Below are positions 6,992 through 54,656 of a DNA stretch of 64,000 bases, one piece after another (positions within the stretch are counted from its first letter, which is position 1; every line of letters starts with the position of its first letter). Origin of the DNA: Leptospirales bacterium (GTDB lineage Bacteria > Spirochaetota > Leptospiria > Leptospirales > Leptonemataceae); NCBI GenBank assembly GCA_965243385.1, contig CBDEUV010000001.1, positions 70,299 through 134,298 on the forward strand, given 5' to 3'. The notes under the pieces were generated by a model. The model did not search any database, was not told the origin of the DNA, and saw nothing but the letters and a program-made list of their open reading frames with translations. Position numbers and translations under genes: made by a program.

Positions 6992-8673
6992 TGCCGGACC
7001 TGAGTTTCATCCACGCGTCCCCTTTCTATGAACTAACGGCACTGATCGCGTTGGTCGCGGTGGTCGGTTTCATCGGGGTGCTGCTGCGCCAGCCGATGAT
7101 CGTCAGCTTTATTTCCGTGGGCGTGCTGGCCGGACCGTCGGCGCTGGGCATCGTCGAATCGCGCGAGCATATCGAGCTTCTGGCGGAGCTGGGAATCGCC
7201 GTCTTACTCTTTCTGGTCGGGCTGAAACTCGACCTCAAGCTGATTCGAACCCTGGGGCCGGTCGCGCTCGCCACCGGACTCGGACAGGTAACATTCACCT
7301 CGGCCATCGGCTACGCGATGGGCATCGCGCTGGGTTTGAACAGCATGACCGCGATCTACGTCGCCGTGGCGCTGACGTTTTCGAGTACGATTATCATCGT
7401 TAAATTGCTTTCGGACAAACGCGAAGCGGATTCGCTGCACGGGCGGATCGCCGTGGGATTTTTGATCGTTCAGGATCTGGTCGTCGTGCTGGCGATGATG
7501 GTCCTGTCGGCATTCGGGCTCGGCTCGCATTCGGAAACCGAAAGCTTCACCGCCTGGACGCATGCCGGCCGGGTTCTGATGTACGGACTGGCGATGCTCG
7601 GCTTTGTGCTGTTTTTCATTCGTTATGTAGCGACGCCGCTCGTCAGCCGGGTCGCCCGTTCGCAGGAGCTGTTGATTACATTCGCCATCGGCTGGGCGAC
7701 GCTGCTGGCGGCGACCGGCAGTCAGCTGGGTTTCAGCAAAGAACTCGGCGGCCTGCTGGCGGGCGTGTCCCTGGCCTCGACCCCGTTCCGGGAAGCGATC
7801 GTCGCGCGACTCGCTTCACTGCGCGATTTTCTGTTATTATTTTTCTTTATAGCGCTGGGCATGCACCTGGACCTCAGTCTGCTCGGATCGCAGGTCGGGC
7901 CGGCGCTATTGTTTTCGCTCTTCGTATTAATCGGCAACCCGCTGATCGTGATGGTGATCATGGGTTTCATGGGCTATCGCAAACGTACCGGATTTCTGGC
8001 GGGCCTCACGGTCGCGCAAATCAGCGAATTCTCCCTGATCTTCATGGCGATGGGCCTGAGTCTCGGGCATGTAACAGCGGAATCCCTGGGATTGGTAACG
8101 CTCGTGGGATTGATCACGATCGCGACCTCGGTTTATATGATCACCTACTCGCACGCCCTGTACAATCGACTCGAGCCCTGGCTGCATATATTCGAACGCA
8201 GAAGACCGTACCGCGAAGACTCCCTGGCGGACAAACGTACCCTGAAGAAACACTACGATGTAATTCTCTTCGGTCTCGGGCGTTACGGGCAGGCGATCGC
8301 GAGTTGTCTGCAGCGCGACGGATTCCATCTGCTGGCCGTCGATTTCAATCCGGATGAAGTCCGGCGCTGGCGGGCGCAGGGGCACGCGGCCCTGTACGGC
8401 GACGCGAGCAATCCCGCCTTCGTGAGCGACCTGCCGCTCCAGGGCGTCCGCTGGGTGGTGTCCGCCATGCCGCAACATGCGATCGGCGTAACGCACGAAG
8501 ATCCACGGCTTTCGTTGATTGAGGAATTGAAACGGCAGAACTATTCCGGGGGCATCGCTATATCTACACGGCAAATGGAAGACCGAGAAATTCTCGAGGC
8601 GAAAGGCGCGAACCTGGTTTTGCTGCCGTTTCGCGACGCGGCGGAACAGGCTGTGGAGCGGATGAGGGCTTGA
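6988..8673 (+). CDS. CPA2-family cation:proton antiporter with C-terminal TrkA-N/RCK domain (Kef-like)
   Basis: 561 aa. About 12 N-terminal TM helices. The C-terminal Rossmann motif is 'VILFGLGRYGQAIASCL'. The start overlaps the ATPase stop (GTGATG at 6988-6993). Confidence 0.8.
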   Translation: MMPDLSFIHASPFYELTALIALVAVVGFIGVLLRQPMIVSFISVGVLAGPSALGIVESREHIELLAELGIAVLLFLVGLKLDLKLIRTLGPVALATGLGQVTFTSAIGYAMGIALGLNSMTAIYVAVALTFSSTIIIVKLLSDKREADSLHGRIAVGFLIVQDLVVVLAMMVLSAFGLGSHSETESFTAWTHAGRVLMYGLAMLGFVLFFIRYVATPLVSRVARSQELLITFAIGWATLLAATGSQLGFSKELGGLLAGVSLASTPFREAIVARLASLRDFLLLFFFIALGMHLDLSLLGSQVGPALLFSLFVLIGNPLIVMVIMGFMGYRKRTGFLAGLTVAQISEFSLIFMAMGLSLGHVTAESLGLVTLVGLITIATSVYMITYSHALYNRLEPWLHIFERRRPYREDSLADKRTLKKHYDVILFGLGRYGQAIASCLQRDGFHLLAVDFNPDEVRRWRAQGHAALYGDASNPAFVSDLPLQGVRWVVSAMPQHAIGVTHEDPRLSLIEELKRQNYSGGIAISTRQMEDREILEAKGANLVLLPFRDAAEQAVERMRA

Positions 8674-8715
8674 GTGTGGTTGGCGTGAGGCTTTTAGAAA
8701 GCATAGCATAATAGA

Positions 8716-9612
8716 CTATTCGCAAACGGGATTGCTGACTTCGCCCAGATCGAATTCCCCGTCGTCGGTACGAATCGAAACCCGTACGACGTCGCCGTCT
8801 CTTAAATAATAAGGCGAAGACCGTTGCCGGCGCAGAAACGCGCGGCGAAAAAAACGTTCCGCCAGAAAGCGCCGGCCCACGCGTTCGAGTAGCGGCGGCT
8901 TAAAAGCGCGACCGACCGCAGTGCCCGCCGGCGTGCCGGTCAACACCAGATCTCCGGCGCGCAGATCCGCAAAACTTCGCAGAGAATCGACCAGCTCTCC
9001 GGGAGCATGAATCATATCCGCGAGGCCCGCGTCCTGACGCAGTTCGCCGTTCACATAACAGCGCAGGCGCAGTTCGGAGAGGCGGGCGCGCAGTCGATGG
9101 TCGAGCGGCGTAAGCCAGGGACCGACGGGACAGAAACCGCGATGCGATTTGCCTTCGTACCACTGCTGGCGCGCGAACTGCAGCTCGCGGGCGGAGACGT
9201 CGTTACACACGACCAGGCCCGCGATCGCGTCCAGTCCTGGCAGTGCCGCGGGCCCCGGCTGCGTTCCGCCCAAATCCCGCCCGACGATCAGGCCCAGCTC
9301 CACTTCGAAATCCAGGAGCGCCTCGCCGACCGGACGGCGCACCGGGGCCTGGCTGCCGATGATCGCTGACGCGGCTTTGCGAAAAAACATGGGCGGCGCG
9401 CCGTCAACAACTCGGCCCATTTCACGCAGCACGCCGCGATAGTTCAAACCCACGGCGGTCACGTCGCAGGGCGCGGTCACCACGGGCAGCGGATTCAGGG
9501 CGTCCACCCGGACAGTTTCGCCGGCGCCGAAGGCCGCCCGCGTCCGATCCAGCCCTCCGCTCTCTTGAATCAATTCGCGCAACGTCGACGGTTGCTTGCG
9601 CAACAACGTCAC
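8716..9612 (-). CDS. Fumarylacetoacetate hydrolase (FAH) family protein
   Basis: The C-terminal ~290 aa of ORF 8716..10137 carry FAH-family features: 'PMFFRKAASAIIG', 'LDFEVELGLIVGRDL', 'VCNDVSARELQ', 'GKSHRGFCPVGPW' and 'GDLVLTGTPAGTAVG'. The Arg-rich N-terminal ~175 codons overlap the NRPS 3' end and were discarded. The proposed start is the GTG at 9612. Confidence 0.7.
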   Translation of the reverse strand: MTLLRKQPSTLRELIQESGGLDRTRAAFGAGETVRVDALNPLPVVTAPCDVTAVGLNYRGVLREMGRVVDGAPPMFFRKAASAIIGSQAPVRRPVGEALLDFEVELGLIVGRDLGGTQPGPAALPGLDAIAGLVVCNDVSARELQFARQQWYEGKSHRGFCPVGPWLTPLDHRLRARLSELRLRCYVNGELRQDAGLADMIHAPGELVDSLRSFADLRAGDLVLTGTPAGTAVGRAFKPPLLERVGRRFLAERFFRRAFLRRQRSSPYYLRDGDVVRVSIRTDDGEFDLGEVSNPVCE

Positions 9613-9707
9613 GTCTTCGGACGCGGCGGCCCCGGCTGAAACGGGCGCGACGACCCAGACCGCCCGACCGCGATACGCGAAGCGTCCGATCTTATCACTC
9701 GTGCGGC

Positions 9708-12700
9708 TCAAACGACGGCCGCCCGAATGGCCCGACTCAGTATTTGTAGATTGTCCGCTTCGAATACGGAAAAGTGACCGCCCGCAAGAGCGCGCACGTC
9801 GAGCTGCCCGCGAATCAATTCGCGCCAGGCGGCCGGCACACGGTCCACGCCGCCCGAGGCGAAGTACACCGCGTCGATGTCGGCGGCGACGGGTCGGTAA
9901 GCCATTTCCGCGACGACGTTCGCGGCGAATACCGGCAGGACCTGCAACAGCTCGCCGCCGAATTGCGTAAAGGTGCGCAGCAAAGCGGCCAAATCGAACG
10001 CGGCCGCGCCTGTCTGCAACGCGTTCGCGGATATGCCTGGCAGTCCGGCGGCCCGGCGCAGATCGGATTCGCCTGGATACAGAACTCGCCAGAGATTGCT
10101 CCAATCGCCGCTCAGGGCCACGCCCTGTAGCGGACAATCGATCAAGAAGAGCGCCTGAATCGCTTCGCCCTCTTCGCGCAACAATCGCGACATTTCAAAT
10201 GCCACCTGGCCTCCAAAGGACCAGCCGCCGATCGCGTACGGTCCCGCGGCCTGCACGCCGCGCATGGCGCTAACGAATTCGCGGGCAATCTCGCGAGCCG
10301 AGTACCGGGGCCAGCGTCCGTCGCCCGGGGCGCCCGGAGTTTGCAATCCGAAGCTGGCGATCCCGTCGCCGAGCTCCGCCGCCAGCGGTAGATAACACAG
10401 CGAATTGCCCGCGGTGGGCGGCGCCAGAAAAAGATTTACCCGCGCGCCGGCCGGTTCTTGCAGCGGTACGATTAGATCGCCGCCTTCGCGCCCGGCGGAC
10501 TTCGCTTCCGTGTTCGGCGAAGCCTGTGGTCTTTCCTGGCCGACTCCGGCCGCTGCCAGCAGGCGCGCCTGTTCCGCGACAGTCTGATGAGCCATAAAAT
10601 CGCGGAGTTGAAACTCCGGCCAGACTTCGCGGCGCAAGCGGGCCACGGTTTGAAACGCCAGCAGGGAGTTTCCGCCCAGCATAAAAAAATTTTCGTGCAC
10701 TCCGACGCTTTCCCGATTCAGGACCGCGCTCCAGGTTTCGGCCAGGAGTTTTTCGACGGGATTCCCGGGGGCGCCGGTCGGTTCCCGATTCGCTGCGCCT
10801 CCCGGGTCGGGCAACGCCCGGCGGTCGATTTTACCGTTCGGCGTGAGCGGCCACTCATCGAGTGCGAGGAAAAACGAGGGGATCATATGACCCGGCAAGC
10901 GGTCGCGCAGAAAGCGCCCGCATTCCTCCGCCAGAGTCGCGCGCTTCGCGTTCGCGCCGTTTTCGCGCCCGTCTTCGTTCAAAACCAGATAGGCGACCAG
11001 AGCCTGATTGGCGGGCGGGTCGCCTCGCAGGCTGACGAGCGCTTCGCGTACGCCCGGCATAGCTTTCAGGTGCGTTTCAATTTCGCCTGGCTCGATTCGA
11101 TGTCCGCGCAGTTTGACCTGGTGATCCAGACGTCCCAGAAATTCGATTTCGCCGCCCGCTTCTTCGAGAAAACGACCGCGATCGCCGGTGCGATAGAGCC
11201 GCCGCCCGCCTTCTTCGACAAAGCGGGCGGCCGTACTCTCCGGCTGATTCCAATAACCCGCCGCGACTCCTTCTCCGCCGATCCAGATTTCGCCTGGCAC
11301 GCCGGCCAGCACATTCGCGCCGGCTTCGTTTCGAATATAAATCTGCGTATTCGCGATCGGCGTGCCGATGGTAATGCGCTCAGGATCCTGGACTTCGAAA
11401 ACGCACGACCAGATGGTGGTTTCCGTCGGACCGTACATATTTAAAACCCGCCCCGCAAAGCGGTCCGCGCTCAACTCCCGGGCCAGATCGTCAGGAAAAG
11501 CTTCGCCGCCGACCAGCAGCGTTTGAATCGATTTCAGCGCGGCGGCGGAGTTCTCGTCCGCCAGCAACATGCGCGCAAACGACGGCGTGCACTGCATATG
11601 GGATATATCCCAGGCTTCGATCAACTCCTGGGTGGATCGCGCTTCCTGATCCATTCGCTTCCAGCTGTTCCGGAGAGCGTCGAGGTGTATCATGTTTTCG
11701 AGCACCAGATCCGTTTCGACGCCGAAGTCGATCAGGCAGGCGATTTCATCCACCTCCAGCTCTTTTAGTTTGCGGACCAGTTCCAGGCAACTCTCCGGCG
11801 AACCGAAGAGACCCATCTCGCTCATATAACGATCCAGAGTTTGCTCGAGCATTCGGTCGGCGTCTTCGGACGAGAGCTCTTGCGCCGGCAAATCCGTAAA
11901 TGTCTTCATGGCGGATCGTGCGAGCGACGAAGAGGAACGAATATAATCGCGCAGCGGTCCGCGCGCGGTATTCAGGGCGAATTCCCGATCCGCGGCGACA
12001 AAGGCGTGCAACATCAAAACGACGCGACCCGTTCCAACATGACCTGCTTCACGACGCGCCGCACGGTACTGCTGAATACGATCGGCCAATCCTTTTAGAT
12101 CCTGGCCCAGCAGGTGGGTCAGGACGCCGGCTCCGGAACGGCCGGCCAGCCGAAAGGTCTCCGGGTTGGTCGCCGCCGTCAGGAAGACGGGCAGTTCCGC
12201 CTGGACCGGGCGCGGATGCAATTCGATCCGCACCGCTTCGCCGTCCCCGCTCCGCATTGTTAAGGATTCGCCCCGCCAGAGTCGGCGGACCTGATCGAGA
12301 TGGCTTTCCAGTACGGAACGTCGTTTTGCAAAACGATCGGGAGCCAGGGCGAAATCCGCGGGATGCCAGCCGGTGGCGAACGAAAGCTCGACCCGACCGC
12401 CGGACAGGTTGTCGACAACGCTCCACTCTTCCGCAACCCGGACCGGTTCGTGCAGAGGCAAGACCACGCTCCCGGCGCGAATTCGAATGCGCTTCGTAAG
12501 CACGGCCAGAGCCGCGGCCGTAACCGACGGGTTCGGGAATAATCCGCCGAAGCGGTGGAAATGTCGTTCAGGAAGCCAAACGCCGGCGAAGCCGCGGTCG
12601 TCCGCGAATTTCGCACCTTCCAGTAACAGGCGATAAGCGTCCGACCCGGCGCTGTCGTCGCCCGCGAAATAGAATACGCTGAAGTCCAGTTCGCGTACGC

Positions 12701-15700
12701 TCCGGGTCGGAGGCGCGTCGTCGGCCTGGATGACCACTGTGAATCCCCGACTGAGAGTCCAGAGTAATTCGAGTACGGAGATATCGAAGGAGATGCTCGT
12801 TACCGCCAGCCAGACGCCGGGATGATCGGTCCCGGGCTCGATGCGATCATCCATGCCGGCGAAGAAATTTACAACGTTGCGATGCGACACGACGACTCCG
12901 CGCGGTCGTCCGGTCGAACCGGATGTATACAGAATGTACGCAGGATCTTCCGGGCGGGCCTGCCGCCCCCCGGTCGCGCCGTCGCCGATCGCAGATAGCG
13001 ATTCCGCTTCGTCAGGCTGCGGAGAAATCAGTCGCGGGTCTCCAGGTGCGAAACCGGGCGGAGTTTCGCCTTCGTCGGATATGATGAGCTGCAGGTCAGC
13101 GTCCTGAGTGATAAACGCCAGGCGTTCCGCCGGATAGTCGGGATCGAGCGGAATATAGGCGGCGCCGGCGGCGAGCACCGCGGGTAACGCGATGGCCATT
13201 TCGAGTGAACGACGCAAATAGATACCGACCCGGACGCCGGGACCGGCCCCGCGGCTTCGCAGCCGACGCGCAAGCTCTAGAATACGCTCCTGCAGTTCGA
13301 GATAACTCAGCCGGCGATCTTCAAAGACCAGAGCGATTCGATCCGGCGTCCGTTCGACCTGGTCGAGAATCGCCGCGTCAATGCGCGCGTCCCGCGGGAA
13401 TTCACGCTCGGTATCATTCCAGCGCGCTCGTTCCTCAAGCTGAGCCGGCGTGAGCAATTCCGCCGTAAACAAGGAGTCGCGCTCGCCCCGGCTCCGCAGA
13501 GAGTCCAGAAAGAACGCGTACGTTTCGCGCAGGCCGCGAACGCTGCGCCTGGAATAACGATCGCGGCGAAACTTAAACGCCAGCCGCAGTCCGTCAGCCG
13601 TTCGCACCGCTTCGAGAATCAAGTCGAATTGCGATTCCTGTTGAACGATCTGGACTTCCGTCCAGGCCTCGCCGGAATCGCCGGCGAAATCCAGGGCGGG
13701 ATCTTTCCGGCGCGCGTCGAGAAAATTATATAGAACTTGAAATCCCGGAGTACGATCGACCGCTCGCGGCAGATCAAATTGTTCGACCAGCAGCGAATAC
13801 GGATAATCGCGGTGGGCCTGGGCCTTCGCCGCGGTATCGCGGACTGAGGCCACGAATTCTCGAAGCGAGGGATCGCCTTCCACAATGGAACGGATCAACA
13901 CGGCGTTGGAAAAATATCCCGGCACGTCGTCGAAGCCCGTTTCCGGGCGAATATCGGTAAGCATCCCGATAACCAGATCCCGCTCTCCGGATAGCCGATG
14001 CAATATTCCCAGAAAGGCTGCGAGCAGAACCGTCGAGAGGGTCGCGTCCAGATCGCTTCCGAATTCCTGCAGACTGTGCAACGACGCCTCATCCAAAAAA
14101 AAGGCTTCCAGTTGCTCCGCTCCGCCCGCGCCGCGTTCGCGTTCCAGCGGAAGACTCACGTCGGGCAATCCGCCGTCGCGGCCGGTCACTTCGCGCCAGA
14201 AATCCGCCAGCTGCGCTCCCCGGGGTCCGGCGAGCATGGCGCGCTGCCCGGCGACGAAATCGCTGTAGTCGTAGAGCGGGCGCTGCCGCGCCGCGATGCC
14301 GCGCGCATAAATCTCCCGCAACTCGCGAACCAGCAGTTGGATCGATCGGTGGTCTACGATTAAATGATGAAAGCCGAGGAGTAAGTACGTGGCGCCTTCG
14401 CTATCGGGCAGCATGACCGCGCGCCACAGCGGGCCTGCCTCCAGATCGAAGGGGCGACGGTGCTCGACCTGAAGCTGTTGAATCGCGGCGGCGACATCGT
14501 GCTGCGAATGAGGATTCGCGTCGCCGGCATCATCCCGGCTATGGCGGCCGGCACCCGCATGCGCGTCGTCTATTGTGGTGAGCTCAACGCGTTTGCATAT
14601 CGGAGCCGGCGCCGAATAGATGGGACCGGTCGGCCGGCCGCTTCGAGCGGGAAAAGTCGAACTCAGAATCGGATAACGCGCCGCCAGACACTGCAACGCC
14701 AGATTCAGACGCTCTTCGTCCAGAGCTTCCGGAACGCGAAGCAGGCTGGCCACATTGTAGGCCGTGTCCTCTGGATCGGCCTGGTACAGAAACCAGAGCG
14801 CGGACTGACCGTGACTGAGGCCCGCCGTATCTCCGGACGAAAGTCCGGGGTCGGCAAAGGCGTGCGGCGGCGCGAATTCAGAATCAGCGTTTCGAGCGCC
14901 CCTTGCCAGTTCGTCCAGCCGGGCGCCCGTCAATACGGCTCCGGGCTGGATATCAATGCCGTAGCTTTCACGCAGATGACGTCGCAGGCGCAAGGCCAGC
15001 AGGGAGTCGACTCCCAGAGCGACCAGAGAACGGTTCCAGTCGGGATCGCCTGAAATGAACGGGCTAAGAAAATCGCGAATGCCGTTTCGCAATTGTCCGG
15101 GATCGACTGCGCCCACGGAGCGTTCGGACCACTCATCCCGCAACTCGGCGCGCAGGCTTTCGGCCAGGGCCGCCACTGCGCCCGGCCGGCGCTCCTCCGG
15201 GGGCCCTGCTGCCGACGAATTCGGCGGATCGTCCGCGCCGATCTTCGATCCCGACCGCTTTCCGAGAAATGCGAAGATCTGCGCTTCCGTTGGCCGCGGT
15301 AGATCTTCGAGTCGGTCATCAGGATGTCTCAAAATCCGCGCGACGACGACGCGGTAGTGCTCGGCCATCGCGAGAATGGTCTCTTTGGAAAACAGGTCTT
15401 CGGAGTATTCCCATACCGTGCGCAGGCGGTGCTTCTGGTCTTCCAGATACAAAAACAAATCGAAGTCGACCCCCGCCCCCACCGGGCCCGCGGCTTCGAC
15501 GAAGATATCTTCCAGTTCCAGGTTTGCGCGGGGGGTATTGAGCAACGAAAACAGAACGCGCGCGGGCTGCTGAGGACCGCGCGATAGACGAGCGGCGTAC
15601 TGAAACGGCAGATCCTGGTGCGCAAAGGCGCCGTCCGCCGCAATGCGCGCCCGTTCGATGAGTTCGACGCAGGTGGGGTTGCCGGATAAATCGGCGCCCA

Positions 15701-16679
15701 GCAGAACCAGGTTGTTAAAATAGCCGACCAGGTTCTCCAGCCCGGGACGATTGCGACAGGCTACCGGCGAGCAGACGAAAAATTTATCGCGCCGGCTGTG
15801 CCCGAAGTGATACAAAACGACGAAGAACGCGGCGAGCGCCACGGAATTGAGAGTCGTACGCCGGGCTCCGGCGAATCTTTTTAGATCGCGGGCGAAACTC
15901 TCGGGCCATTGAATTTGCAGCCGGCGTCCGGTATGCCGGGCATGCGCCTGCGCTTCGGGCAGCGGCGGCGAAACCAGGTCGCGTTCGCCGATTACGGAAT
16001 TCCAGTATCCGAGCAGATCTTCGAGCAAACCGGGTGTCGCCAGCCAGCTTCTCTGCCAGGCCGCGAAATCCGCGAAATTGAGCGGCAACGTTGGAAGTTG
16101 CGAAAGCTGATCTGCTTCGCCGTTACGACAGGCCGCATAAAGGCGCGCCAGGTCGCGATGGATTGTATCCAGGGACCAGTAATCGAAGGCGATGTGATGA
16201 AATTCCAGACACAGAATATGTAGCTTCGCTTCGACCCGCCAGAGACGCGGGCGAAAGGGCGCTTCGCTTCGCAGGTCGAAAGGGATCTCAGGAATCGCGT
16301 TGAGCATCTCCGTTAATTCGCCTTCGTCGACGACCGCGGGCATCGTTTCCACGACCAGGGGCCGGCGCGCGAAGGCGCTGAGCCGCATCCGCGGACTGCC
16401 CCGCTTTTCAAAAAATCGAGCGTCAAGAATGGGATGGCGTTCCCGCAGGCGCACGAGGGCTAATTCCAGCGCCGGCAGCTCGAGTGCGCCGCGCAGCCGA
16501 TAACACAGCGCCCGGTTATGGCCGGAGTGACCCGAAAAGCTCGCCTCCCAGATCCGTTCCTGGCCGGGAGTCAGCGCCGCGTCGGCTTCCGCCAGACCCG
16601 CCTGTAAGGGCGGCCCGGAGTTCTGCAATTCCAGCAGTCGCCGCAAACCGAACAACGCGCCCGTATCTGTTCCGCTCAT
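9708..16679 (-). CDS. Non-ribosomal peptide synthetase, C-T-C-A(LLM monooxygenase insert)-T-TE
   Basis: 2,323 aa.
- C1: 'FHHIAFDYWS' (~16.18 kb).
- T1: 'LGVDSLLAL' (~15.0 kb).
- C2: 'FHHLIVDHRS' (~14.36 kb).
- A motifs: 'YILYTSGSTGRPRG', 'SISFDISV', then 'NMYGPTETT', 'YRTGD' and 'GRLDHQVKLRGHRIE'.
- Luciferase-like block, between 'FDIS' and 'YGPTE': 'LDFSVFYFAGDD...GVWLPERHF...ATGWHP'.
- T2: 'LGGNSLLA' (~10.67 kb).
- TE: 'GGWSFGG' (~10.22 kb).
A good RBS (GAGAGGAG) precedes the ATG. Confidence 0.9.
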   Translation of the reverse strand: MSGTDTGALFGLRRLLELQNSGPPLQAGLAEADAALTPGQERIWEASFSGHSGHNRALCYRLRGALELPALELALVRLRERHPILDARFFEKRGSPRMRLSAFARRPLVVETMPAVVDEGELTEMLNAIPEIPFDLRSEAPFRPRLWRVEAKLHILCLEFHHIAFDYWSLDTIHRDLARLYAACRNGEADQLSQLPTLPLNFADFAAWQRSWLATPGLLEDLLGYWNSVIGERDLVSPPLPEAQAHARHTGRRLQIQWPESFARDLKRFAGARRTTLNSVALAAFFVVLYHFGHSRRDKFFVCSPVACRNRPGLENLVGYFNNLVLLGADLSGNPTCVELIERARIAADGAFAHQDLPFQYAARLSRGPQQPARVLFSLLNTPRANLELEDIFVEAAGPVGAGVDFDLFLYLEDQKHRLRTVWEYSEDLFSKETILAMAEHYRVVVARILRHPDDRLEDLPRPTEAQIFAFLGKRSGSKIGADDPPNSSAAGPPEERRPGAVAALAESLRAELRDEWSERSVGAVDPGQLRNGIRDFLSPFISGDPDWNRSLVALGVDSLLALRLRRHLRESYGIDIQPGAVLTGARLDELARGARNADSEFAPPHAFADPGLSSGDTAGLSHGQSALWFLYQADPEDTAYNVASLLRVPEALDEERLNLALQCLAARYPILSSTFPARSGRPTGPIYSAPAPICKRVELTTIDDAHAGAGRHSRDDAGDANPHSQHDVAAAIQQLQVEHRRPFDLEAGPLWRAVMLPDSEGATYLLLGFHHLIVDHRSIQLLVRELREIYARGIAARQRPLYDYSDFVAGQRAMLAGPRGAQLADFWREVTGRDGGLPDVSLPLERERGAGGAEQLEAFFLDEASLHSLQEFGSDLDATLSTVLLAAFLGILHRLSGERDLVIGMLTDIRPETGFDDVPGYFSNAVLIRSIVEGDPSLREFVASVRDTAAKAQAHRDYPYSLLVEQFDLPRAVDRTPGFQVLYNFLDARRKDPALDFAGDSGEAWTEVQIVQQESQFDLILEAVRTADGLRLAFKFRRDRYSRRSVRGLRETYAFFLDSLRSRGERDSLFTAELLTPAQLEERARWNDTEREFPRDARIDAAILDQVERTPDRIALVFEDRRLSYLELQERILELARRLRSRGAGPGVRVGIYLRRSLEMAIALPAVLAAGAAYIPLDPDYPAERLAFITQDADLQLIISDEGETPPGFAPGDPRLISPQPDEAESLSAIGDGATGGRQARPEDPAYILYTSGSTGRPRGVVVSHRNVVNFFAGMDDRIEPGTDHPGVWLAVTSISFDISVLELLWTLSRGFTVVIQADDAPPTRSVRELDFSVFYFAGDDSAGSDAYRLLLEGAKFADDRGFAGVWLPERHFHRFGGLFPNPSVTAAALAVLTKRIRIRAGSVVLPLHEPVRVAEEWSVVDNLSGGRVELSFATGWHPADFALAPDRFAKRRSVLESHLDQVRRLWRGESLTMRSGDGEAVRIELHPRPVQAELPVFLTAATNPETFRLAGRSGAGVLTHLLGQDLKGLADRIQQYRAARREAGHVGTGRVVLMLHAFVAADREFALNTARGPLRDYIRSSSSLARSAMKTFTDLPAQELSSEDADRMLEQTLDRYMSEMGLFGSPESCLELVRKLKELEVDEIACLIDFGVETDLVLENMIHLDALRNSWKRMDQEARSTQELIEAWDISHMQCTPSFARMLLADENSAAALKSIQTLLVGGEAFPDDLARELSADRFAGRVLNMYGPTETTIWSCVFEVQDPERITIGTPIANTQIYIRNEAGANVLAGVPGEIWIGGEGVAAGYWNQPESTAARFVEEGGRRLYRTGDRGRFLEEAGGEIEFLGRLDHQVKLRGHRIEPGEIETHLKAMPGVREALVSLRGDPPANQALVAYLVLNEDGRENGANAKRATLAEECGRFLRDRLPGHMIPSFFLALDEWPLTPNGKIDRRALPDPGGAANREPTGAPGNPVEKLLAETWSAVLNRESVGVHENFFMLGGNSLLAFQTVARLRREVWPEFQLRDFMAHQTVAEQARLLAAAGVGQERPQASPNTEAKSAGREGGDLIVPLQEPAGARVNLFLAPPTAGNSLCYLPLAAELGDGIASFGLQTPGAPGDGRWPRYSAREIAREFVSAMRGVQAAGPYAIGGWSFGGQVAFEMSRLLREEGEAIQALFLIDCPLQGVALSGDWSNLWRVLYPGESDLRRAAGLPGISANALQTGAAAFDLAALLRTFTQFGGELLQVLPVFAANVVAEMAYRPVAADIDAVYFASGGVDRVPAAWRELIRGQLDVRALAGGHFSVFEADNLQILSRAIRAAVV

Positions 16680-16698: not shown

Positions 16699-17367
16699 CT
16701 AGGCCGGTGCTTGCATGCGGATCGCGATGGCGGGTAGATCGTGATGCGGCCGCTGGCGAATTACGATGCAGTCCGCGATATCGAGCCACTCGAAGTACGG
16801 CGCGAAGGCCGAACGGATATTATTCACGCGGCGCTCTTTTAGTTCCCGCTCGCGCGCGGGCGTTTCCGGTTTGCCCTGGTTGGTGCTGCTGATAATCAAT
16901 AAACGCGCACCGGGAGCCGCGTACGTCCGCAGCGTTCGAGCATAACACTCGTAAAAATTCACCGGCATGCCGTGCAAACAACCGCGGTCGAAAAGCGAGT
17001 GATAGATCGGCTGGTCCGCGGTATCGCGACAAATATCCACGACGTCGTACGACAGCCGGCCTTCGATTTCAGGAAAATTTTTGCGCGCGGTGTCGATGGC
17101 CGACGGAGCGACGTCGACGCCTTTCACTGCGAATCCCTGCTCCACAAGCCAGGCGGCCAGTTCGCCCCCGCCGCAACCAATGTCCAGCAACGGCCCACCG
17201 GGTACGAAAAAGCCGTCGCGGACCGCAAGGTTCAGAGCGTCGGGCACGCCGTCGACCCGCCAGAAGGGATCGTAATCTTTGCGCGACCAGCCGTATTCCC
17301 AGACGGAACTCATCTGGTCCATAGCCCAGTCGAGCCCCGCGGTTTTTTTTCCACCCGGGCCGGTCAT
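16699..17367 (-). CDS. SAM-dependent methyltransferase
   Basis: 222 aa. Motif I is 'LLDIGCGGGELAAWLVEQGFAVKGVDVAPSAI'. The start overlaps the stop of the upstream carrier gene (ATGA). Confidence 0.75.
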   Translation of the reverse strand: MTGPGGKKTAGLDWAMDQMSSVWEYGWSRKDYDPFWRVDGVPDALNLAVRDGFFVPGGPLLDIGCGGGELAAWLVEQGFAVKGVDVAPSAIDTARKNFPEIEGRLSYDVVDICRDTADQPIYHSLFDRGCLHGMPVNFYECYARTLRTYAAPGARLLIISSTNQGKPETPARERELKERRVNNIRSAFAPYFEWLDIADCIVIRQRPHHDLPAIAIRMQAPA

Positions 17368-17630
17368 GACGCACCGCTTTCGACCACGAGTTGCGATATC
17401 GCGGCGATGCTCTGAAAATTTTCGAACATGACCTGCTCGGGCGCGATCTGAATCTGGTAGTTTTCTTTGATAAAATTTATCGTTCGGATAATCGCCATCG
17501 AATCCAGAATGCCCAGAGCAATCAGATCCGTTTCCGACTCCAATTCCTCTTCGAGCGCCTCTACCAGAATTTGATCGACAATGAATTTTTTTAATCCCCC
17601 CCGGATGTCTTCCAGTACCAGGTTAGCCAT
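17364..17630 (-). CDS. Stand-alone acyl/peptidyl carrier protein
   Basis: 88 aa and acidic. The phosphopantetheine attachment context is 'LGILDSMAI'. It lies immediately downstream of the adenylating enzyme. Confidence 0.75.
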   Translation of the reverse strand: MANLVLEDIRGGLKKFIVDQILVEALEEELESETDLIALGILDSMAIIRTINFIKENYQIQIAPEQVMFENFQSIAAISQLVVESGAS

Positions 17631-17631
17631 T

Positions 17632-19251
17632 TTATGTTCCTCCTTTTATTAATTCCTGTCCGGTCATTTCAGTGAGCAGAGCCCGCCGATCGATTTTGCC
17701 CGTGGACGTTCGCGGAAACTCCCGCATTAAGATGATCTCATCGGGAACCATATACGCCGGGAGGCGCTCCGCACAGTAGGCCCGCAGACCCGCCGGAGTC
17801 AGTTCGCTGTCCGGATTCGCAATCAGTACGCAGGCCTTCAGAATATTTCCGAATTCGTCGTGCGGTACAGGTACGATCGCGCCTTCTTCCACGGCGGGGT
17901 GCGCGGCGAGCCGCGCCTCGACTTCACCGATTTCAATACGATATCCGCGGCTTTTGATCATTCCGTCCCGGCGCCCGACGAATCGAAAATCGCCGGCCTC
18001 ATCCACGCGCACGATATCGCCTGTGCGATAGGCCGACCGCTCCCGGAGCTGCGAAATTTTTTCCGGATTCAGAAAAGCCTTTCGATTTTCCGGAGTCCGG
18101 TTCCAGTAGCCGCGCATCACTCCGGCGCCGGCCGCGCAGAGTTCGCCTTCGTCGCCGGGCGCGGGATGGGTGATCGCATTCCCTTCGTCGTCGATCAGAA
18201 AAACGCGCGTATTGGCGCAGGCCCGGCCGATGGGCAGACTGCTTTCATCCGTCCCGGGAAGTTCCGCGACCCGATAATAAGTACAAACGTTGGTTTCCGT
18301 CGGACCGTACAGGTTATAGTACTGCGGGCCCGGCAGCAGCGAACGCAATCGGCGCAGATGTTTGAGCGGAAAGACCTCCCCCGCGAAAAGCACATAACGC
18401 AGGGCGCTCAAATCCTGCGCCGGCAGGTCGCCGCGCAGAGTCAACTGGATCAGCGCCGAAGGAACCGAGTACCAGACCGTAATGCGTCGTTCCGCGACGA
18501 ATTGCGCGAGCCGGGTCGGGAACAGGGCGACTTCGGGGGGAATCAAATGGACCGCCGCGCCGGCCGCGAAGCTGACGAACAGGTCGAAAATCGAAAGGTC
18601 GAAATGAAAAGGCGCGTGCGAGCTCACCCGATCATCCGGCTTCAACTGAAACTGCTCCCCGGCCCATTCGATGAAAGTCAGAGCCGCGCGATGATCGATC
18701 ATAACCCCTTTCGGCGCGCCGGTTGAACCGGAGGTATACAGGATATAAGCGAGTGATTGTTCGGTACTATCGCGCGTTAAGTCGCAGGCGTCGCGATCTA
18801 CGCGCTCCTGCGCGGCGGCGGAGCCATGCACGGAAATCATCGGAACGTCGAGGACACCGCCGGCCCGCAGCCGTTTCTCGCTCTTTTCGTCCACGACCAA
18901 CGCGCGACACTCACAATCCCGCGCAATCAAGGCCAGCCTGGCCTTCGGCGCGTTCGGATCCAGCGGCACATACGCGGCCCCCGCCTTTACGGCGCCGAGC
19001 AGAGCCGCGACGGTAGCCGGCGATTTGCGAGCGCACACTCCCACGCGATCGCCCGGGCGGACCCCCGCCGCCGTCAGAGTCCGCGCGAAGTCGTCGGCCA
19101 GCGCGTTCAACTCCGCGTAGCTGAGCTCCGCTTCGACGTCGACTACGGCGGGACGGGTCGGATACTCCCGGGCCGAACGTTCTATGATATGCTGAATCAG
19201 GTACATGGCGATTTTAGTTTTACCGGCGGATTGAGCGATGCGAATGAACAT
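17632..19251 (-). CDS. Stand-alone adenylation enzyme (amino acid--carrier protein ligase, PltF/CloN4/DltA-like)
   Basis: AMP-binding motifs: 'YILYTSGSTGAPKGV', 'YNLYGPTETNV', 'YRTGD', 'GRRDGMIKSRGYRIE' and 'TSTGKIDR'. There is no C or T domain. An alternative start is the ATG at 19206 (MYLIQHII...). Confidence 0.85.
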   Translation of the reverse strand: MFIRIAQSAGKTKIAMYLIQHIIERSAREYPTRPAVVDVEAELSYAELNALADDFARTLTAAGVRPGDRVGVCARKSPATVAALLGAVKAGAAYVPLDPNAPKARLALIARDCECRALVVDEKSEKRLRAGGVLDVPMISVHGSAAAQERVDRDACDLTRDSTEQSLAYILYTSGSTGAPKGVMIDHRAALTFIEWAGEQFQLKPDDRVSSHAPFHFDLSIFDLFVSFAAGAAVHLIPPEVALFPTRLAQFVAERRITVWYSVPSALIQLTLRGDLPAQDLSALRYVLFAGEVFPLKHLRRLRSLLPGPQYYNLYGPTETNVCTYYRVAELPGTDESSLPIGRACANTRVFLIDDEGNAITHPAPGDEGELCAAGAGVMRGYWNRTPENRKAFLNPEKISQLRERSAYRTGDIVRVDEAGDFRFVGRRDGMIKSRGYRIEIGEVEARLAAHPAVEEGAIVPVPHDEFGNILKACVLIANPDSELTPAGLRAYCAERLPAYMVPDEIILMREFPRTSTGKIDRRALLTEMTGQELIKGGT

Positions 19252-19255: not shown

Positions 19256-20992
19256 TCAGGTGGCGGCCCCCTGCCTGCTGCAGTCCGCGATCATTTCCGG
19301 TGAAATCGCGTAGTCGTCGAACCAGCGATTGCCCAGTGGCCGGTCTACCTGTACGATCGCGTCCGTAGAATACGTCAGGACCTTTCGGTTCCAATCGACG
19401 ATAGCCTTGCGCAACCCTGCAGGGGCGCGCCGGTCTTCGCGCAACACCGCATCGTATTCTTCCGTCAGCGCTCGCGATCGTTCCAGACGATCCAGGGCGG
19501 CGGCGCCGTCCGCAGGACTGAGCCGTCCGGTCTCCATTTTATGGCGCGTCATGCTTCCGAGCGCGTCATACACCAGCGGCAAAAATTGTTTCCTGGAAAG
19601 CCACCTGGTTTCGTAATTCAGGCGATAGTTCCAGCGGGGTTCTTCCAGAGCGGCGACGTGTTCGCTCAGCCCGCGAAAGAATACGCGATAGCCGTGCTTT
19701 TCCGGTTCTTCAAAAAAGCGGGAGCCTGGATCCAGAAAAGGCGCCATTGGAGTCAGTGTGGGAACGACCCGCGTTTCGTGCGCGAAGCGATCCATGAGTC
19801 GTCTTGAATAGGCGACGGTTCGCATGACCGACTCGGGGGTCTGACGCGGCATACCGATAAAAAACCAGACGTAAACGCCTTTTACCCCTTCGCCGAGGGC
19901 CATCTCAATCCAGTCTTCCATCTGTCGCATCGAATAGACGCCCCGCCCCGACAGACGACTCACGTCGGCGTCGCTCGACTCTGGTGAAAGATTGATGTAC
20001 AGGCCCGCCCGGCCCGCGGCGTGAACCATGCGACGCAGGGATGCGCGCTTCGCGAGGTGAAATTGTTCGAGGGCGACCGAGCCGACGCGTCCGCTGTCGC
20101 CGACAGCCTGCAGGTACTCCACCAGGCGGCTTGTGGGTTCCGAATAGGCCTGCAACGAATATATATTCACGGGAGCCGGCAGCCGGTTGATCGATTCGAC
20201 TTCCCGATCCAGAGCGCGCTGTCCGCGAAAGATCACGGTCTTTTTATCCAGTCCCATGATATTGCGGTAGGCGAAACGCGACCCGCCGCACCAACCGCAG
20301 TCGTGCGCGCAACCGGAGTTGGGCAGGATCATCAGTGTCGGCAGATTCAGGAGATTGATTCCGGTCGGCAGATAATACGACCAATCCACGTCCGTATCGT
20401 TGAGCTTCTCCGGTAAATAGTTGAACGGGGTTTCGTTAATATCGCCGCTGCGATCCTTAAAGCTCAGGTTCGGAATATTTTTTAGTTCGTCGCGACGACT
20501 CTCACAGATCGCGCTTACCAGTTTACAGGTCGGCTCCAGCGTATCGTATCCGGCGATCACGACGTCCACCTGCGGGTAACGAATCAATTCGTCCCGATAG
20601 TACGTGGCCGATATGCCCCCGAAGATGACGAATGTTTCCGGCCGGCGCCGTTTGAGTTCCGCGGCCGCCGCCAGAGAGCCCTGGCAATGGATCATCCAGT
20701 GCAAATCGAAGCCGATCACCGGAGCATCCAGTCGTTCGAGCAAACGTCCCGCGTCGAGATCCGGGAAACGTAACATCAACGACGCCAGGTTAACGATCTC
20801 CACCCGCAGGCCTCTGGCCTTCAGATAACTGGCCAGGGATAAAAAACCCACGGGATACATTTCGAAGACCGGAGTGATATTCACGCTGAGCGAATCCGCG
20901 AGAGCACCGAAGATCAGGTCGTCGCGCTCCCGAAAGTCGAAGACCGACGGGGCGTGGACGAGAATCAAATCTGCCTGAATCGTAGTACTCAT
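19256..20992 (-). CDS. B12-binding-domain radical SAM enzyme (class B, methyltransferase-like)
   Basis: 578 aa. An N-terminal Rossmann-like, cobalamin-type domain is followed by a CxxxCxxC cluster, 'GCAHDCGWCGG'. Confidence 0.75.
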   Translation of the reverse strand: MSTTIQADLILVHAPSVFDFRERDDLIFGALADSLSVNITPVFEMYPVGFLSLASYLKARGLRVEIVNLASLMLRFPDLDAGRLLERLDAPVIGFDLHWMIHCQGSLAAAAELKRRRPETFVIFGGISATYYRDELIRYPQVDVVIAGYDTLEPTCKLVSAICESRRDELKNIPNLSFKDRSGDINETPFNYLPEKLNDTDVDWSYYLPTGINLLNLPTLMILPNSGCAHDCGWCGGSRFAYRNIMGLDKKTVIFRGQRALDREVESINRLPAPVNIYSLQAYSEPTSRLVEYLQAVGDSGRVGSVALEQFHLAKRASLRRMVHAAGRAGLYINLSPESSDADVSRLSGRGVYSMRQMEDWIEMALGEGVKGVYVWFFIGMPRQTPESVMRTVAYSRRLMDRFAHETRVVPTLTPMAPFLDPGSRFFEEPEKHGYRVFFRGLSEHVAALEEPRWNYRLNYETRWLSRKQFLPLVYDALGSMTRHKMETGRLSPADGAAALDRLERSRALTEEYDAVLREDRRAPAGLRKAIVDWNRKVLTYSTDAIVQVDRPLGNRWFDDYAISPEMIADCSRQGAAT

Positions 20993-21023: not shown

Positions 21024-22451
21024 TCAAACGGTGTTTGTGGCCCGCCGCTTTCGGGTTCCCGCGGGGAATAGAAGCTCCAGGGACTCGTCCCGCCGGCAGG
21101 TTTTGGAGTAAAAGTCTTCGCGGTTGATCACCAGGTTTTTATAACCTTCAAACATTTTCTGATCGCGGCCTATAAGATCGAAGAGCTCTTCGTACTTCGC
21201 CGAGTTTTCGAAGAAATCTCCGGCCAGAATATAGTGACCGGCGGCCAGGGCGTCTGCGGAATCCCGCGCGAGAACGGACCCCGCCGCGGCGAAATTAACA
21301 GCGTGCGGGTCGTAATACAGACGAATCAGCTTGTACACCACGTCGTACGCGCGGTTGATCAGATCGTAGACCTGGACCAACGGGCCTTTGCCGACACCGT
21401 GCTCTTCCGGATGCTCAAGGATCTGATGCAGTGCGTCGCCCAATAGCGTTCCGCTTTTCATCGAAAGATATACGCCGCTGGAAAAGATCGGATCGATAAA
21501 ACGCGAAGCGTCTCCGACCAGCGCGAAATTCGCTCCGAATTTTTCTTCGGAAAAATATGAATAGTCGCCTTCGACTCGCGGCGCCATAGTCAGCTCCGCG
21601 CCCGCGGTCAGCTCTCGGGTAAACTCGGTCTTCTGGATTTCTGCTCGAAAGAGATCGGCTTTCCAGTCTTCGCCGCCGTCTTTCTGAATCGCTTCTTTCT
21701 GAACCGCTTCTTTCGCCGCCTGAAAGCCGGCGTTGTCCATGACCACTCCCAGAGTCACCGTGTCGGGTCCGAGCGGAAAGATCCACATCCAGCCTTTGCG
21801 ATCCCCGCCGAGATACATGATGATCGAAGTGCCCTCTTCAAGGCCGCCGCTCAATTCGCGTATTCCGGAGAAGTGGCTCCAGATCGCCGTCCGGGCCAGG
21901 CCCGCGTGCGGTTTGCGCTGGCCTCGCTTGTTTGAAAGAAATCCGGAACGTCCCGTGGCATCGACCAGGAATCGAGCGCGATATTCGCGTTCGCCGCCAT
22001 CGGGGCCGTTCGCTCTGACCAGAACCCCTGCTCCCGCTCCTTCCAGGTCGACCGCGGTCGCCCGGGTTTCTTCGCGCACGACGACACCCTTCGAGCGGGC
22101 GTTTTCCAGCAGGATCTGATCGAATTCGGCACGTTTGACCTGAAAGGAAAGATAGCTCTCGTCGTGCAACACGTGATCGAAGCACCAATAGGTGGAATAC
22201 GAATTGTCCGGACTGGCGAAACGCACGCCGGGTTTACGAACGAAACTGCCCTTCATTTGATCGAGCACGCCGATTCGTTTGAAGATGTCGTAACAAAACG
22301 GCAGCAACGATTCGCCCACGTGCTCCCGGGGGAATTTCTCTTTTTCGAGCAGGAGTACGGAATGACCTTGCTGGGCGAGTACGCAGCTCGTGGTCGAACC
22401 GGCCGGTCCACCGCCCATTACGATTACGTCGGCGTCATATTTGTTGTTCAT
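21024..22451 (-). CDS. FAD-dependent oxidoreductase, probable flavin-dependent halogenase (PltA/CmlS type)
   Basis: 475 aa. Motifs: dinucleotide fold 'VIVMGGGPAGS', 'REHVGESLLP', a WxWxIP-like 'GWMWIFPL' and 'GDASRFIDPIFSSGV'. Confidence 0.7.
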   Translation of the reverse strand: MNNKYDADVIVMGGGPAGSTTSCVLAQQGHSVLLLEKEKFPREHVGESLLPFCYDIFKRIGVLDQMKGSFVRKPGVRFASPDNSYSTYWCFDHVLHDESYLSFQVKRAEFDQILLENARSKGVVVREETRATAVDLEGAGAGVLVRANGPDGGEREYRARFLVDATGRSGFLSNKRGQRKPHAGLARTAIWSHFSGIRELSGGLEEGTSIIMYLGGDRKGWMWIFPLGPDTVTLGVVMDNAGFQAAKEAVQKEAIQKDGGEDWKADLFRAEIQKTEFTRELTAGAELTMAPRVEGDYSYFSEEKFGANFALVGDASRFIDPIFSSGVYLSMKSGTLLGDALHQILEHPEEHGVGKGPLVQVYDLINRAYDVVYKLIRLYYDPHAVNFAAAGSVLARDSADALAAGHYILAGDFFENSAKYEELFDLIGRDQKMFEGYKNLVINREDFYSKTCRRDESLELLFPAGTRKRRATNTV

Positions 22452-22493: not shown

Positions 22494-23678
22494 TCAGAGT
22501 CCGAGCAGGCCCGCAATCAGATTTTTTTGAATTTCGGTGGTGCCCGAATACAGCCGGCTGGCCAGGGCGTCCCTTAACTCTCGCTCAATTTCAGTTTCCT
22601 GGAGATAGCCTCTACCCCCGAAAATCTGCAGCGCGTCCAAACAGGTCTGAACATAAGCTTCACTGACGACGCACTTCACCATAGCCGCCTGCATAAAGAT
22701 CATCTCGCCCTGTTGTTTGCTCCAGGCGGCGCGGTACAGCAGGCCGCGGGCCTGCTCCAGACGCAGCTGCATGTCGACGATTTTTTCCGCGATCATCTGG
22801 TATTTGCCGATCGCCTGGCCGCCCTGCTTTCTTTTGCGTGCGAAGGCGATGCACTGCTCCATGATTCGGCGGATTGTCCCGATCGCGGGCGCCAGAATAA
22901 AAGCGCGCTCCCACTCCATAATATGATTGAATAGAGCCATGCCCGCGCCTTCGGCGCCGAGCAATCGATTCGCCGGCACGCGACAGTCTTCGAGAATTAA
23001 TTCGCCCATTTGAGCGGTGCGAACGCCCATTTTCGAATTTTTGATCACCCGGAGACCTTCCGTTTCCCGATCCACCAGAAAACAACTGATGCCGTCCGCG
23101 CCCGATCCACTTCCGGTGCGCGCGAAAACCAGAAAGATGGTCGCAACGGGCCCGTTCGTAACGAACAGCTTTCGGCCGTTTAGTATATAATCCGCGCCGT
23201 CGTTCAGGGCGCGCGTAGTCATAGCATAAATATCCGAGCCGGCCGCAGCTTCGCTCGCAGCGTGCGCTCCAATGAATTCGCCGGAGCACAGCCCCGGTAA
23301 GTACTCTGCTTTCTGGGAATCCGTTCCGAAGTGCAGAAGGGGCGTCTGACAGGCCCACATCTGCGCGTTCAAACCGAAAACCAGCCCGTTGTCGCGACAA
23401 GCGTACCCAAAGGCTTCCAGCCCGCGAATGGTCGTTAAAAGATCATATTCGCCCCCGCCGTAAACGCGGGGCACGATCGTTCCGGGAATTCCCCGGGAAC
23501 AACACTTGCGCCAGCCCTCCGCGTTAAAACTTTGCTCCGCGTCGAGAGCGATGATCTCCGAATCGATCCGGGAGTCGCGGACGAATTCCAGGATTTCCTG
23601 GTGATGCGATTCCTGCCCGGCAGACCACTCGAAATTCATGTCGGAACCCGTAACGAGAACGTCATACTCGAAAATCAC
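22494..23678 (-). CDS. Acyl-CoA dehydrogenase family flavoprotein (PltE/CloN3-like candidate)
   Basis: 394 aa with ACAD N, middle and C-terminal domains ('FIGAHAASEAAAGSD', 'FVTNGPVA', 'LQIFGGRGY', 'RLYSGTTEIQKNLIA'). The listed start is a GTG. An ATG at 23639 is an alternative. Confidence 0.85.
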   Translation of the reverse strand: MIFEYDVLVTGSDMNFEWSAGQESHHQEILEFVRDSRIDSEIIALDAEQSFNAEGWRKCCSRGIPGTIVPRVYGGGEYDLLTTIRGLEAFGYACRDNGLVFGLNAQMWACQTPLLHFGTDSQKAEYLPGLCSGEFIGAHAASEAAAGSDIYAMTTRALNDGADYILNGRKLFVTNGPVATIFLVFARTGSGSGADGISCFLVDRETEGLRVIKNSKMGVRTAQMGELILEDCRVPANRLLGAEGAGMALFNHIMEWERAFILAPAIGTIRRIMEQCIAFARKRKQGGQAIGKYQMIAEKIVDMQLRLEQARGLLYRAAWSKQQGEMIFMQAAMVKCVVSEAYVQTCLDALQIFGGRGYLQETEIERELRDALASRLYSGTTEIQKNLIAGLLGL

Positions 23679-47635: not shown

Positions 47636-47645
47636 ATCGTCCTGC

Positions 47646-48461: not shown

Positions 48462-48466
48462 AATAT

Positions 48467-53643: not shown

Positions 53644-53670
53644 AGGATTCGTCTCTTTGCTTTACTCGCG

Positions 53671-53759
53671 CAAGATTCGGTGAATCTTACGATGCTCCGG
53701 GCATGCAAGATTCACTGAATCTTGCTATGGTTCGGTCTTTCAAGATTTAGTGAATCTTG
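53671..53759. promoter_or_regulatory. Three parS/operator-like palindromes at 35-bp spacing
   Basis: 'AAGATTC-GGT-GAATCTT' (53672-53688), 'AAGATTC-ACT-GAATCTT' (53707-53723) and 'AAGATTT-AGT-GAATCTT' (53742-53758). All three lie in the 123-bp parA-parB intergenic region. Confidence 0.6.
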
Positions 53760-53766
53760 AAAAGCC

Positions 53767-54603: not shown

Positions 54604-54656
54604 GCCGCTTGCTCCTGTGCTCTTCCGTGACGGCTCCACCGGGATTCGAATATCCC

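Follow-up and report, generated by a model that had tools for sequence, protein, structure and literature searches.

What does a flavin-dependent monooxygenase do when it is built into the adenylation (A) domain of a nonribosomal peptide synthetase (NRPS)? This question is raised by a 64,000-nucleotide stretch of DNA from a Leptospirales bacterium (assembly GCA_965243385.1, contig CBDEUV010000001.1, positions 70,299 to 134,298 of the forward strand), hereafter the window, in which all positions are given. It contains a gene for an NRPS with the domain order C1-T1-C2-A[MOx]-T2-TE (C, condensation domain; T, carrier domain; MOx, monooxygenase, the brackets marking its place inside the A domain; TE, thioesterase). 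An initial annotation of this DNA had recognised a luciferase-like monooxygenase (LLM) within the A domain, and had compared it with the MOx domains of MtaG (myxothiazol) and MelG (melithiazol), where the growing chain is released as a primary amide. By analogy with these systems, the last module of the NRPS is probably a termination module of the MtaG/MelG type, which uses glycine to form an amide and would end a short pyrrole-carboxylate assembly line.

The interrupted adenylation domain and its module

All five peptide motifs quoted in the initial annotation were recovered, each where it had been placed, in a single minus-strand open reading frame (ORF) of 2323 amino acids (aa): SISFDISV (A4 type; aa 1295-1302, window 12774-12797), LDFSVFYFAGDD (window 12654-12689), GFAGVWLPERHF (window 12558-12593), ELSFATGWHP (window 12360-12389) and NMYGPTETT (A5 type; aa 1747-1755, window 11415-11441). 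Domain annotation was performed using the Pfam and NCBIfam profiles. The NCBIfam family TIGR04020, which groups the flavin mononucleotide (FMN)-dependent LLM of the MupA/Atu3671 type, gave 481.3 bits for aa 1333-1670, against a cut-off of 244.45, and its profile was covered from end to end (1-341 of 341). The Pfam family Bac_luciferase matched aa 1338-1644 (E=5.4e-53), between the two parts into which Pfam splits the AMP-binding domain (aa 1106-1337, then a second part from near aa 1678). Both scores are far above chance, and the closest solved structure by sequence is the OX domain of PuwE (PDB 6KET; 1.2e-106, 48% identity). The insert is a genuine LLM of the TIGR04020 type, as the initial annotation had proposed, and the range that it had indicated (11600-12700) encloses the domain at 11670-12683.

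The insertion point was located by excising the MOx in silico, after which the remaining sequence aligned continuously with GrsA. The MOx lies between motifs A4 and A5, which is the position described for MtaG and MelG (PMC10204066) and the one that the initial annotation had assigned. The same annotation gave about 360 aa as the distance between the two motifs. The motifs are 444 aa apart, of which the insert makes up about 340-355 aa, for a usual spacing of about 85-90 aa in the GrsA alignment. Read against GrsA, the specificity code of the interrupted A domain is DILQLGMIWK. This corresponds to the pattern DILQxGxxWK, which we take from published codes to be a glycine code, and the domain is thus predicted to be specific for glycine, as A domains of this type are described to be in MtaG/MelG and FshJ (PMC11411415, PMC13548996).

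Conservation within the MOx was assessed using 130 relatives, the family-conserved residues and the fold serving as a proxy for the FMN and active site. Of 105 positions with a conservation of 95% or more among the relatives, 96 are kept, and the segments PERHFH, FGG, PNP, AEEW, VDN, LTHLLGQ and DFG are among these. The nine departures are mostly conservative; one of them is a T to L change within the otherwise invariant segment WTPERHFH. The 871-aa A[MOx] region was modelled with AlphaFold2 from a 36-sequence alignment. The model reached a mean pLDDT (its per-residue confidence score) of 86 and consists of an A-domain fold and a TIM-barrel LLM. Foldseek searches against the PDB returned ordinary A domains and, separately, 6KET, on which the MOx part superposes with a TM-score of 0.94 and a root-mean-square deviation of 2.0 A at 48% identity. 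No solved structure joining an A-domain fold and an embedded MOx was found in the PDB copy that was searched.

The interrupted A domain belongs to the final module, as had been noted in the initial annotation: the Pfam PP-binding match of T2 (aa 1978-2041) is followed in the same protein by that of the Thioesterase family (aa 2083-2320), and the stop codon comes after aa 2323. The catalytic and attachment motifs are intact throughout, including the serine and histidine of the TE, the attachment serine of each carrier (T1 and T2) and the HHxxxD motifs of C1 and C2.

In MtaG and MelG, glycine is condensed onto the chain, its alpha-carbon is hydroxylated by the MOX domain and the resulting carbinolamide cleaves to a terminal amide, the leftover two-carbon thioester being removed by the TE (PMC11411415, PMC10204066). 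A 2024 preprint regards such amidative release as established for myxothiazol, with a similar mechanism in sarpeptins and zwittermicin A (bioRxiv 10.1101/2024.10.28.620694), and it has been proposed for FshJ of the fischerazole pathway (2026 paper, PMC13548996). For sarpeptin biosynthesis, our literature search gave passing mentions only. Amidative release is considered the likeliest function of the present module because it shares every sequence-level feature of the MtaG/MelG kind that was examined. The domain identities, the insertion point, the glycine and proline specificity codes, the intact catalytic motifs and the structure of the operon are properties of the sequence itself. The amide-release proposal of the initial annotation is supported at this level by the LLM identity, the A4-A5 site, the glycine code and the T-TE ending, and the chemistry is assigned by analogy. 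This applies to every chemical step that follows, alpha-hydroxylation and amide release included.

Under this analogy, a free-standing A enzyme encoded in the same operon would load proline onto an 88-aa peptidyl carrier protein (PCP), and a PigA/RedW-like dehydrogenase would oxidise the carrier-bound proline to pyrrolyl-2-carboxyl-S-PCP. This pyrrolyl unit may be decorated by a halogenase-like flavoprotein, a B12-radical S-adenosylmethionine (SAM) enzyme and a methyltransferase. The interrupted A domain would activate glycine and load it onto T2, and C2 would couple the upstream acyl chain to the glycine nitrogen. Using FMNH2 (supplied by a flavin reductase encoded elsewhere) and O2, the MOx would then hydroxylate the alpha-carbon of the T2-bound N-acyl-glycine. 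The carbinolamide would break at the N-C(alpha) bond, so that the chain would leave as a primary amide with the nitrogen of the glycine, and the glyoxylyl-S-T2 that remains would be hydrolysed by the TE, which would regenerate the carrier. The product is predicted to be a small primary amide with a substituted pyrrole-2-carbonyl group.

The module shares with MtaG and MelG (C-A-MOX-A-T-TE) a glycine A domain split between a4 and a5 by a flavin monooxygenase, a terminal position followed by T-TE, and the proposed chemistry of alpha-hydroxylation of tethered glycine with release of a primary amide (PMC11411415, PMC10204066). Unlike them, the NRPS described here has an additional C-T module without A domain at its N-terminus, and its upstream chain would apparently come from a proline-to-pyrrole cassette and not from a long polyketide synthase (PKS)/NRPS line. 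FshJ (fischerazole, Fischerella sp. PCC 9431) also combines an interrupted A[MOx] with a terminal T-TE and a proposed carboxamide release, and its A domain was recognised as glycine-specific only once the MOx had been excised in silico (PMC13548996). It has in addition an N-methyltransferase domain and gives an N-methyl carboxamide, whereas no such domain was found by Pfam between A and T here.

Two further systems were compared. The PuwE OX domain of the puwainaphycin PKS/NRPS belongs to the same TIGR04020-type family, acts alpha to a carrier thioester and has been assigned the alpha-hydroxylation of a carrier-bound acyl chain (PMC4219810). It differs in its location, which is not within an A domain but between an aminotransferase-containing PKS module and an NRPS module, and in hydroxylating a beta-amino fatty acyl chain on which the hydroxyl is retained. 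SolF (solanimycin) is a glycine-activating module whose embedded flavin monooxygenase makes alpha-hydroxyglycine (PMC10204066). In this case the insert occupies a site between a8 and a9 of an internal module, and the hydroxyglycine stays in the chain, which is extended further.

Relatives and distribution of the interrupted domain

Searches of a collection of 5.8 billion proteins returned no ortholog with the same overall architecture, the best non-self match being 42% identical over 59% of the query. There is therefore no characterised cluster from which a function could be transferred to the whole protein. The 871-aa A[MOx] unit by itself is abundant. Its best 120 matches have identities of 47-53% and, with a single exception, span 97% or more of its length. 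The MOx domain alone matched 1,952 cluster representatives (50% identity) at E <= 1e-30. A scan of genomes, with one genome per species, found at least 600 loci with MOx matches, and the genomes listed include Myxococcota, Rhodobacteraceae, Acidobacteriota, Cyanobacteria and Actinomycetota. MtaG and MelG were absent from the protein matches listed, and neither Stigmatella nor Melittangium was found among 80 genome-scan loci.

The insertion between A4 and A5 and the code DILQxGxxWK were found together in all 131 of the alignable interrupted domains. The surroundings of the unit are more variable: the best 120 protein matches comprise 87 proteins with C-A[MOx]-T and 26 with A[MOx]-T, very few of them with a TE, and among 149 representatives about 11 continue into T-TE and about 30 into another C domain. 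The glycine/MOx unit with its A4-A5 insertion is a conserved building block, and the MtaG-like terminal T-TE is one of the several contexts in which it occurs. The insertion alone is no proof of amide release, an inference that is carried by the T-TE context.

One of the other layouts was observed in Rhodobacteraceae, where many genomes (loci L014, L020, L022, L026, L028, L032, L039 and others) have a T-TE unit directly upstream of A[MOx](-T) and on the same strand. No C domain was detected before the A[MOx] unit in these genomes (gene boundaries lay outside this analysis). In this layout the MOx could act only on unacylated glycyl-S-T.

The operon and the module without adenylation domain

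The NRPS gene is the penultimate of eight minus-strand genes separated by gaps of -4 to 42 bp. They are transcribed in the order acyl-CoA dehydrogenase (ACAD)-family enzyme, halogenase-like enzyme, B12-radical SAM enzyme, free A enzyme, PCP, methyltransferase, NRPS and fumarylacetoacetate hydrolase (FAH)-family protein. Their coordinates and those of the NRPS domains are collected in Table 1.

Table 1. Coordinates in the window, and supporting evidence, for the NRPS gene, its domains and the other genes of the operon
Feature	Position	Strand	Evidence
NRPS gene, 2323 aa, C1-T1-C2-A[MOx]-T2-TE	9708..16679	-	ORF list and translation; Pfam and NCBIfam domains; identical gene called on the source contig
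C1, condensation domain at the N-terminus (about aa 1-480)	15240..16679	-	Pfam Condensation, two stretches; HHIAFD at aa 161-166
T1, carrier of the A-less first module (about aa 530-605)	14865..15092	-	Pfam PP-binding, second stretch; GVDSL at aa 556-560
C2, condensation domain in the last module (aa 618-1059)	13503..14828	-	Pfam Condensation, best stretch; HHLIVD
Glycine (predicted) A domain, N-terminal part (aa 1106-1332), motifs A1-A4 including AYILYTSGSTG and SISFDISV	12684..13364	-	Pfam AMP-binding, aa 1106-1337, profile 3-261 of 384
Embedded FMN-dependent luciferase-like monooxygenase, MOx (aa 1333-1670)	11670..12683	-	TIGR04020; Bac_luciferase; PDB 6KET
Glycine (predicted) A domain, C-terminal part (aa 1671-1950), motifs A5-A10 including NMYGPTETT, YRTGD and NGKIDR	10830..11669	-	TIGR01733, second stretch, aa 1678-1882; AMP-binding_C, aa 1866-1950
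T2, carrier of the terminal module (aa 1978-2041), GGNSL	10557..10748	-	Pfam PP-binding, aa 1978-2041
Thioesterase (aa 2083-2320), GWSFG serine, C-terminal GGH histidine	9720..10433	-	Pfam Thioesterase, 3e-26
ACAD-family enzyme, prolyl-carrier-protein dehydrogenase type (394 aa)	22494..23678	-	Best NCBIfam families PigA and RedW
Flavin-dependent halogenase-like enzyme (475 aa)	21024..22451	-	Pfam Trp_halogenase, 1.8e-24; PDB matches
B12-binding radical SAM enzyme (578 aa) with a CxxxCxxC motif at aa 228	19256..20992	-	Pfam B12-binding and Radical_SAM
Free-standing adenylation enzyme (539 aa), proline-type code DLFYLALVCK	17632..19251	-	Pfam AMP-binding; code; PltF match
Free-standing carrier protein (88 aa), LDS serine motif	17364..17630	-	Gene call on the source contig; weak PP-binding match; sequence
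SAM-dependent methyltransferase (222 aa, TPMT-like)	16699..17367	-	Pfam TPMT and Methyltransf_25
FAH-family gene (331 aa)	8716..9711	-	Gene call; Pfam FAA_hydrolase

Judging from its gene content, the operon looks like a cassette for the conversion of proline to pyrrolyl-2-carboxyl-S-carrier, together with tailoring enzymes, which would feed a two-module NRPS. It is read in this way because the free A enzyme has a proline code, the ACAD is best matched by PigA and RedW, and the halogenase-like enzyme resembles PltA, Bmp2 and CmlS. The code of the free A enzyme, DLFYLALVCK, is identical to that of PltF (DLLYLALVCK) at 9 of 10 residues, as read from the alignment, and PltF (6O6E), a prolyl-carrier ligase, is the top PDB match of its pocket region (2e-34). 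A glycine-activating function was also considered for this enzyme, as its best full-length PDB match is LgrA (503 bits in two stretches) and the best matching stretch of LgrA is presumably the glycine-activating second module, but it was ruled out by the code and by the PltF pocket match. The ACAD scored 390 bits with PigA (cut-off 500) and 365 bits with the L-prolyl-PCP dehydrogenase family RedW (cut-off 650), by far its best families, and the radical SAM enzyme scored 377 bits with TIGR04190 (cut-off 500). The halogenase-like enzyme, a putative halogenase, matched 8ZOP, CmlS, 3E1T, 5BUL/5BVA and PltA in the PDB (1e-39 to 5e-46; for CmlS, 5BUL/5BVA and PltA, 1e-39 to 1e-45). Its GxGxxG motif is present as GGGPAG, and WxWxIP reads WMWIFP.

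With the PltF/PltL/PltE/PltA, PigA/RedW and CloN3-CloN6 cassettes the operon shares a free A enzyme with a proline-type pocket and a free carrier, and its ACAD and its flavoprotein like PltA, Bmp2 or CmlS are candidate counterparts of enzymes of these cassettes. A B12-radical SAM methylase (CloN6) has a role with pyrrolyl-carrier cassettes. Unlike in those cassettes, the ACAD and the radical SAM enzyme lie under the equivalog cut-offs, and the pyrrolyl unit would feed a C-T module without A domain.

The nearest relatives of C1-T1 are free-standing A-less C-T and C-T-TE proteins, with 30-34% identity. In Corallococcus terminator (locus L002, positions 5120-11830), a homologous cassette of radical SAM enzyme, ACAD, A enzyme and PCP was found directly before a C-T protein, which is followed by a large NRPS/PKS. 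Its proteins are 51% (ACAD), 49% (radical SAM enzyme), 44% (A enzyme, with an identical pocket code) and 32% (PCP) identical to those of the window. Because the C. terminator cassette likewise precedes a C-T protein, the pyrrole-type cassette with an A-less C-T module is considered, from sequence comparison, as a recurring unit. No description of a pyrrole cassette feeding an A-less C-T module was found in the literature consulted.

The way in which T1 is loaded would set the product. Both carriers might be served by the glycine A domain or by the proline A enzyme, or the pyrrolyl unit might be passed along by C1; the product might accordingly be a pyrrolyl-glycinamide, a pyrrolyl-prolinamide or a pyrrole-2-carboxamide. 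The mini-cluster of a C-T-TE relative (L003) was inspected as a guide to the loading of an A-less T domain and was set aside, as its only A enzyme lacks Asp235 (code AHGPFALSVK) and gave no answer. As a less likely possibility, the locus may encode a minimal assembly line in which glycine is only the ammonia donor and the A-less C-T, placed between the free pyrrolyl carrier and the module that forms the amide, is a relay or a station for shared loading. In that case a very small pyrrole-2-carboxamide, possibly halogenated and C-methylated, or a pyrrolyl-aminoacyl amide would be made, and the operon would be carried by a possible 380-kb circular plasmid.

At the two ends of the operon, the following was observed. 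The start of the FAH gene overlaps the stop of the NRPS gene by 4 nt, which suggests co-translation. Whether the FAH gene belongs to the pathway is uncertain; it could handle a glyoxylate-type by-product or have an unrelated role. On the other side, a gene of the rve integrase/transposase family (Pfam; 24034-25371, plus strand) directly borders the operon, which is consistent with its acquisition by mobile DNA.

Alternative readings, significance and the wider window

Several points weigh against an amide-forming module at the end of a pyrrole line. The comparison with MtaG and MelG was made at the level of motifs and architecture, from published descriptions, and not residue by residue. The scan of window ORFs, which left aside those shorter than 200 aa and several of the longer listed ones, identified no flavin reductase. 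The first module has no A domain, so that the chain reaching C2 is not defined, and the ACAD and the radical SAM enzyme both score under the curated cut-offs of their best NCBIfam families. In the relatives, the T domain stands directly before the protein end in 53 of 58 evaluable genome loci. This was measured by reading through to the stop codon, in place of a crude tblastn search for the TE which divergent TEs could escape, and both gave the same answer. In several multimodular relatives A[MOx] belongs to the first module or to an internal one, and where such a non-terminal module is followed by a further C domain, the hydroxyglycine or a derivative of it must be handed over. Since most relatives have no TE in the same protein, the chemistry of the family is not uniformly amide release with a TE.

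A different outcome for the hydroxylated residue was considered. If the MOx hydroxylates glycine and the alpha-hydroxyglycine is retained, the TE would release an N-acyl-alpha-hydroxyglycine acid. This is considered unlikely here, even though the non-terminal modules of the relatives imply that the hydroxylated residue can survive until it is passed on, and retained alpha-hydroxyglycine is known in solanimycin B, skyllamycin and spergualin (PMC10204066). Skyllamycin uses a stand-alone monooxygenase and not an embedded domain, and SolF, the sole example of retained hydroxyglycine with an embedded flavin monooxygenase, has its insert between a8 and a9 and not between a4 and a5; spontaneous cleavage of the carbinolamide is discussed in the same work (PMC10204066). 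The layout found here, with a glycine code, an A4-A5 insert and T-TE, is by contrast exactly that of the myxothiazol, melithiazol and fischerazole systems, where it is linked to release as an amide. Retention is also disfavoured on chemical grounds, a free acyclic C-terminal carbinolamide being labile.

The substrate or the activity of the MOx could also differ from that assumed for amidative release. It is quite unlikely, in our view, that the MOx acts at another step or on another substrate, in which case the module would not be an ammonia donor. Free glycyl-S-T2 could for instance be its target ahead of condensation, which would yield a glyoxylyl or hydroxy unit, or else the upstream unit bound to T1. 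The A[LLM]-T relatives without a C domain (the 26 among the best 120 matches, and many genome loci) offer only unacylated glycyl-S-T as a substrate, and the timing of hydroxylation is left unsettled in the literature consulted; against this, the C domain that stands directly before the A domain here has kept its HHxxxD, and a TE follows, as in the characterised amide-forming modules. An inactive relic, in a module that simply adds glycine and whose TE releases an acyl-glycine acid, is very improbable. The nine changed positions among the 105 highly conserved ones, with the T to L change in WTPERHFH, and the flavin reductase missing from the ORFs scanned would agree with such a loss, but the domain keeps the other 96 positions, its changes are mostly conservative, it spans the full profile with no large deletion, and its confident model superposes on 6KET. 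Flavin reductases are moreover commonly encoded elsewhere in the genome. Amidative release by a glycine-dependent module thus remains the preferred reading.

The arrangement itself is known and widespread, is named automatically by NCBIfam, and is here a new example of a described mechanism. If the module works as predicted, the compact 15-kb operon, with one NRPS and six or seven small genes, would be a tractable system for the study of glycine-dependent amidative release. A caution for genome mining also follows: glycine modules of the A[LLM] type are very common, are sometimes internal and usually belong to proteins with no TE of their own, so that the label "terminal amide" should not be given on the strength of the insertion alone. 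Both the pyrrole-carboxamide predicted as product and the A-less C-T unit that recurs after pyrrole cassettes are to be considered as natural-product leads and not as established findings.

The source of the window is a 380,518-bp metagenome contig, ctg12097_141x_c. Its suffix may mean that the contig is circular, in which case a megaplasmid or a secondary replicon of an uncultured bacterium may carry the cluster. A ParA/ParB-like gene pair is present in the window at 52786-54639 (minus strand). An ORF of 5088 aa (30035-45301, minus strand) encodes a protein rich in alanine, leucine and glutamate, non-repetitive and devoid of cysteine, and its DNA has a strong AT skew. It was considered as a possible NRPS/PKS or as a part of the system, and was rejected after Pfam searches with both halves gave no match. 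Beside it, genes for an APH-family phosphotransferase, a phosphorylase-family protein (PNP_UDP_1) and a sodium:solute symporter follow each other in a row (46382-49969, minus strand).

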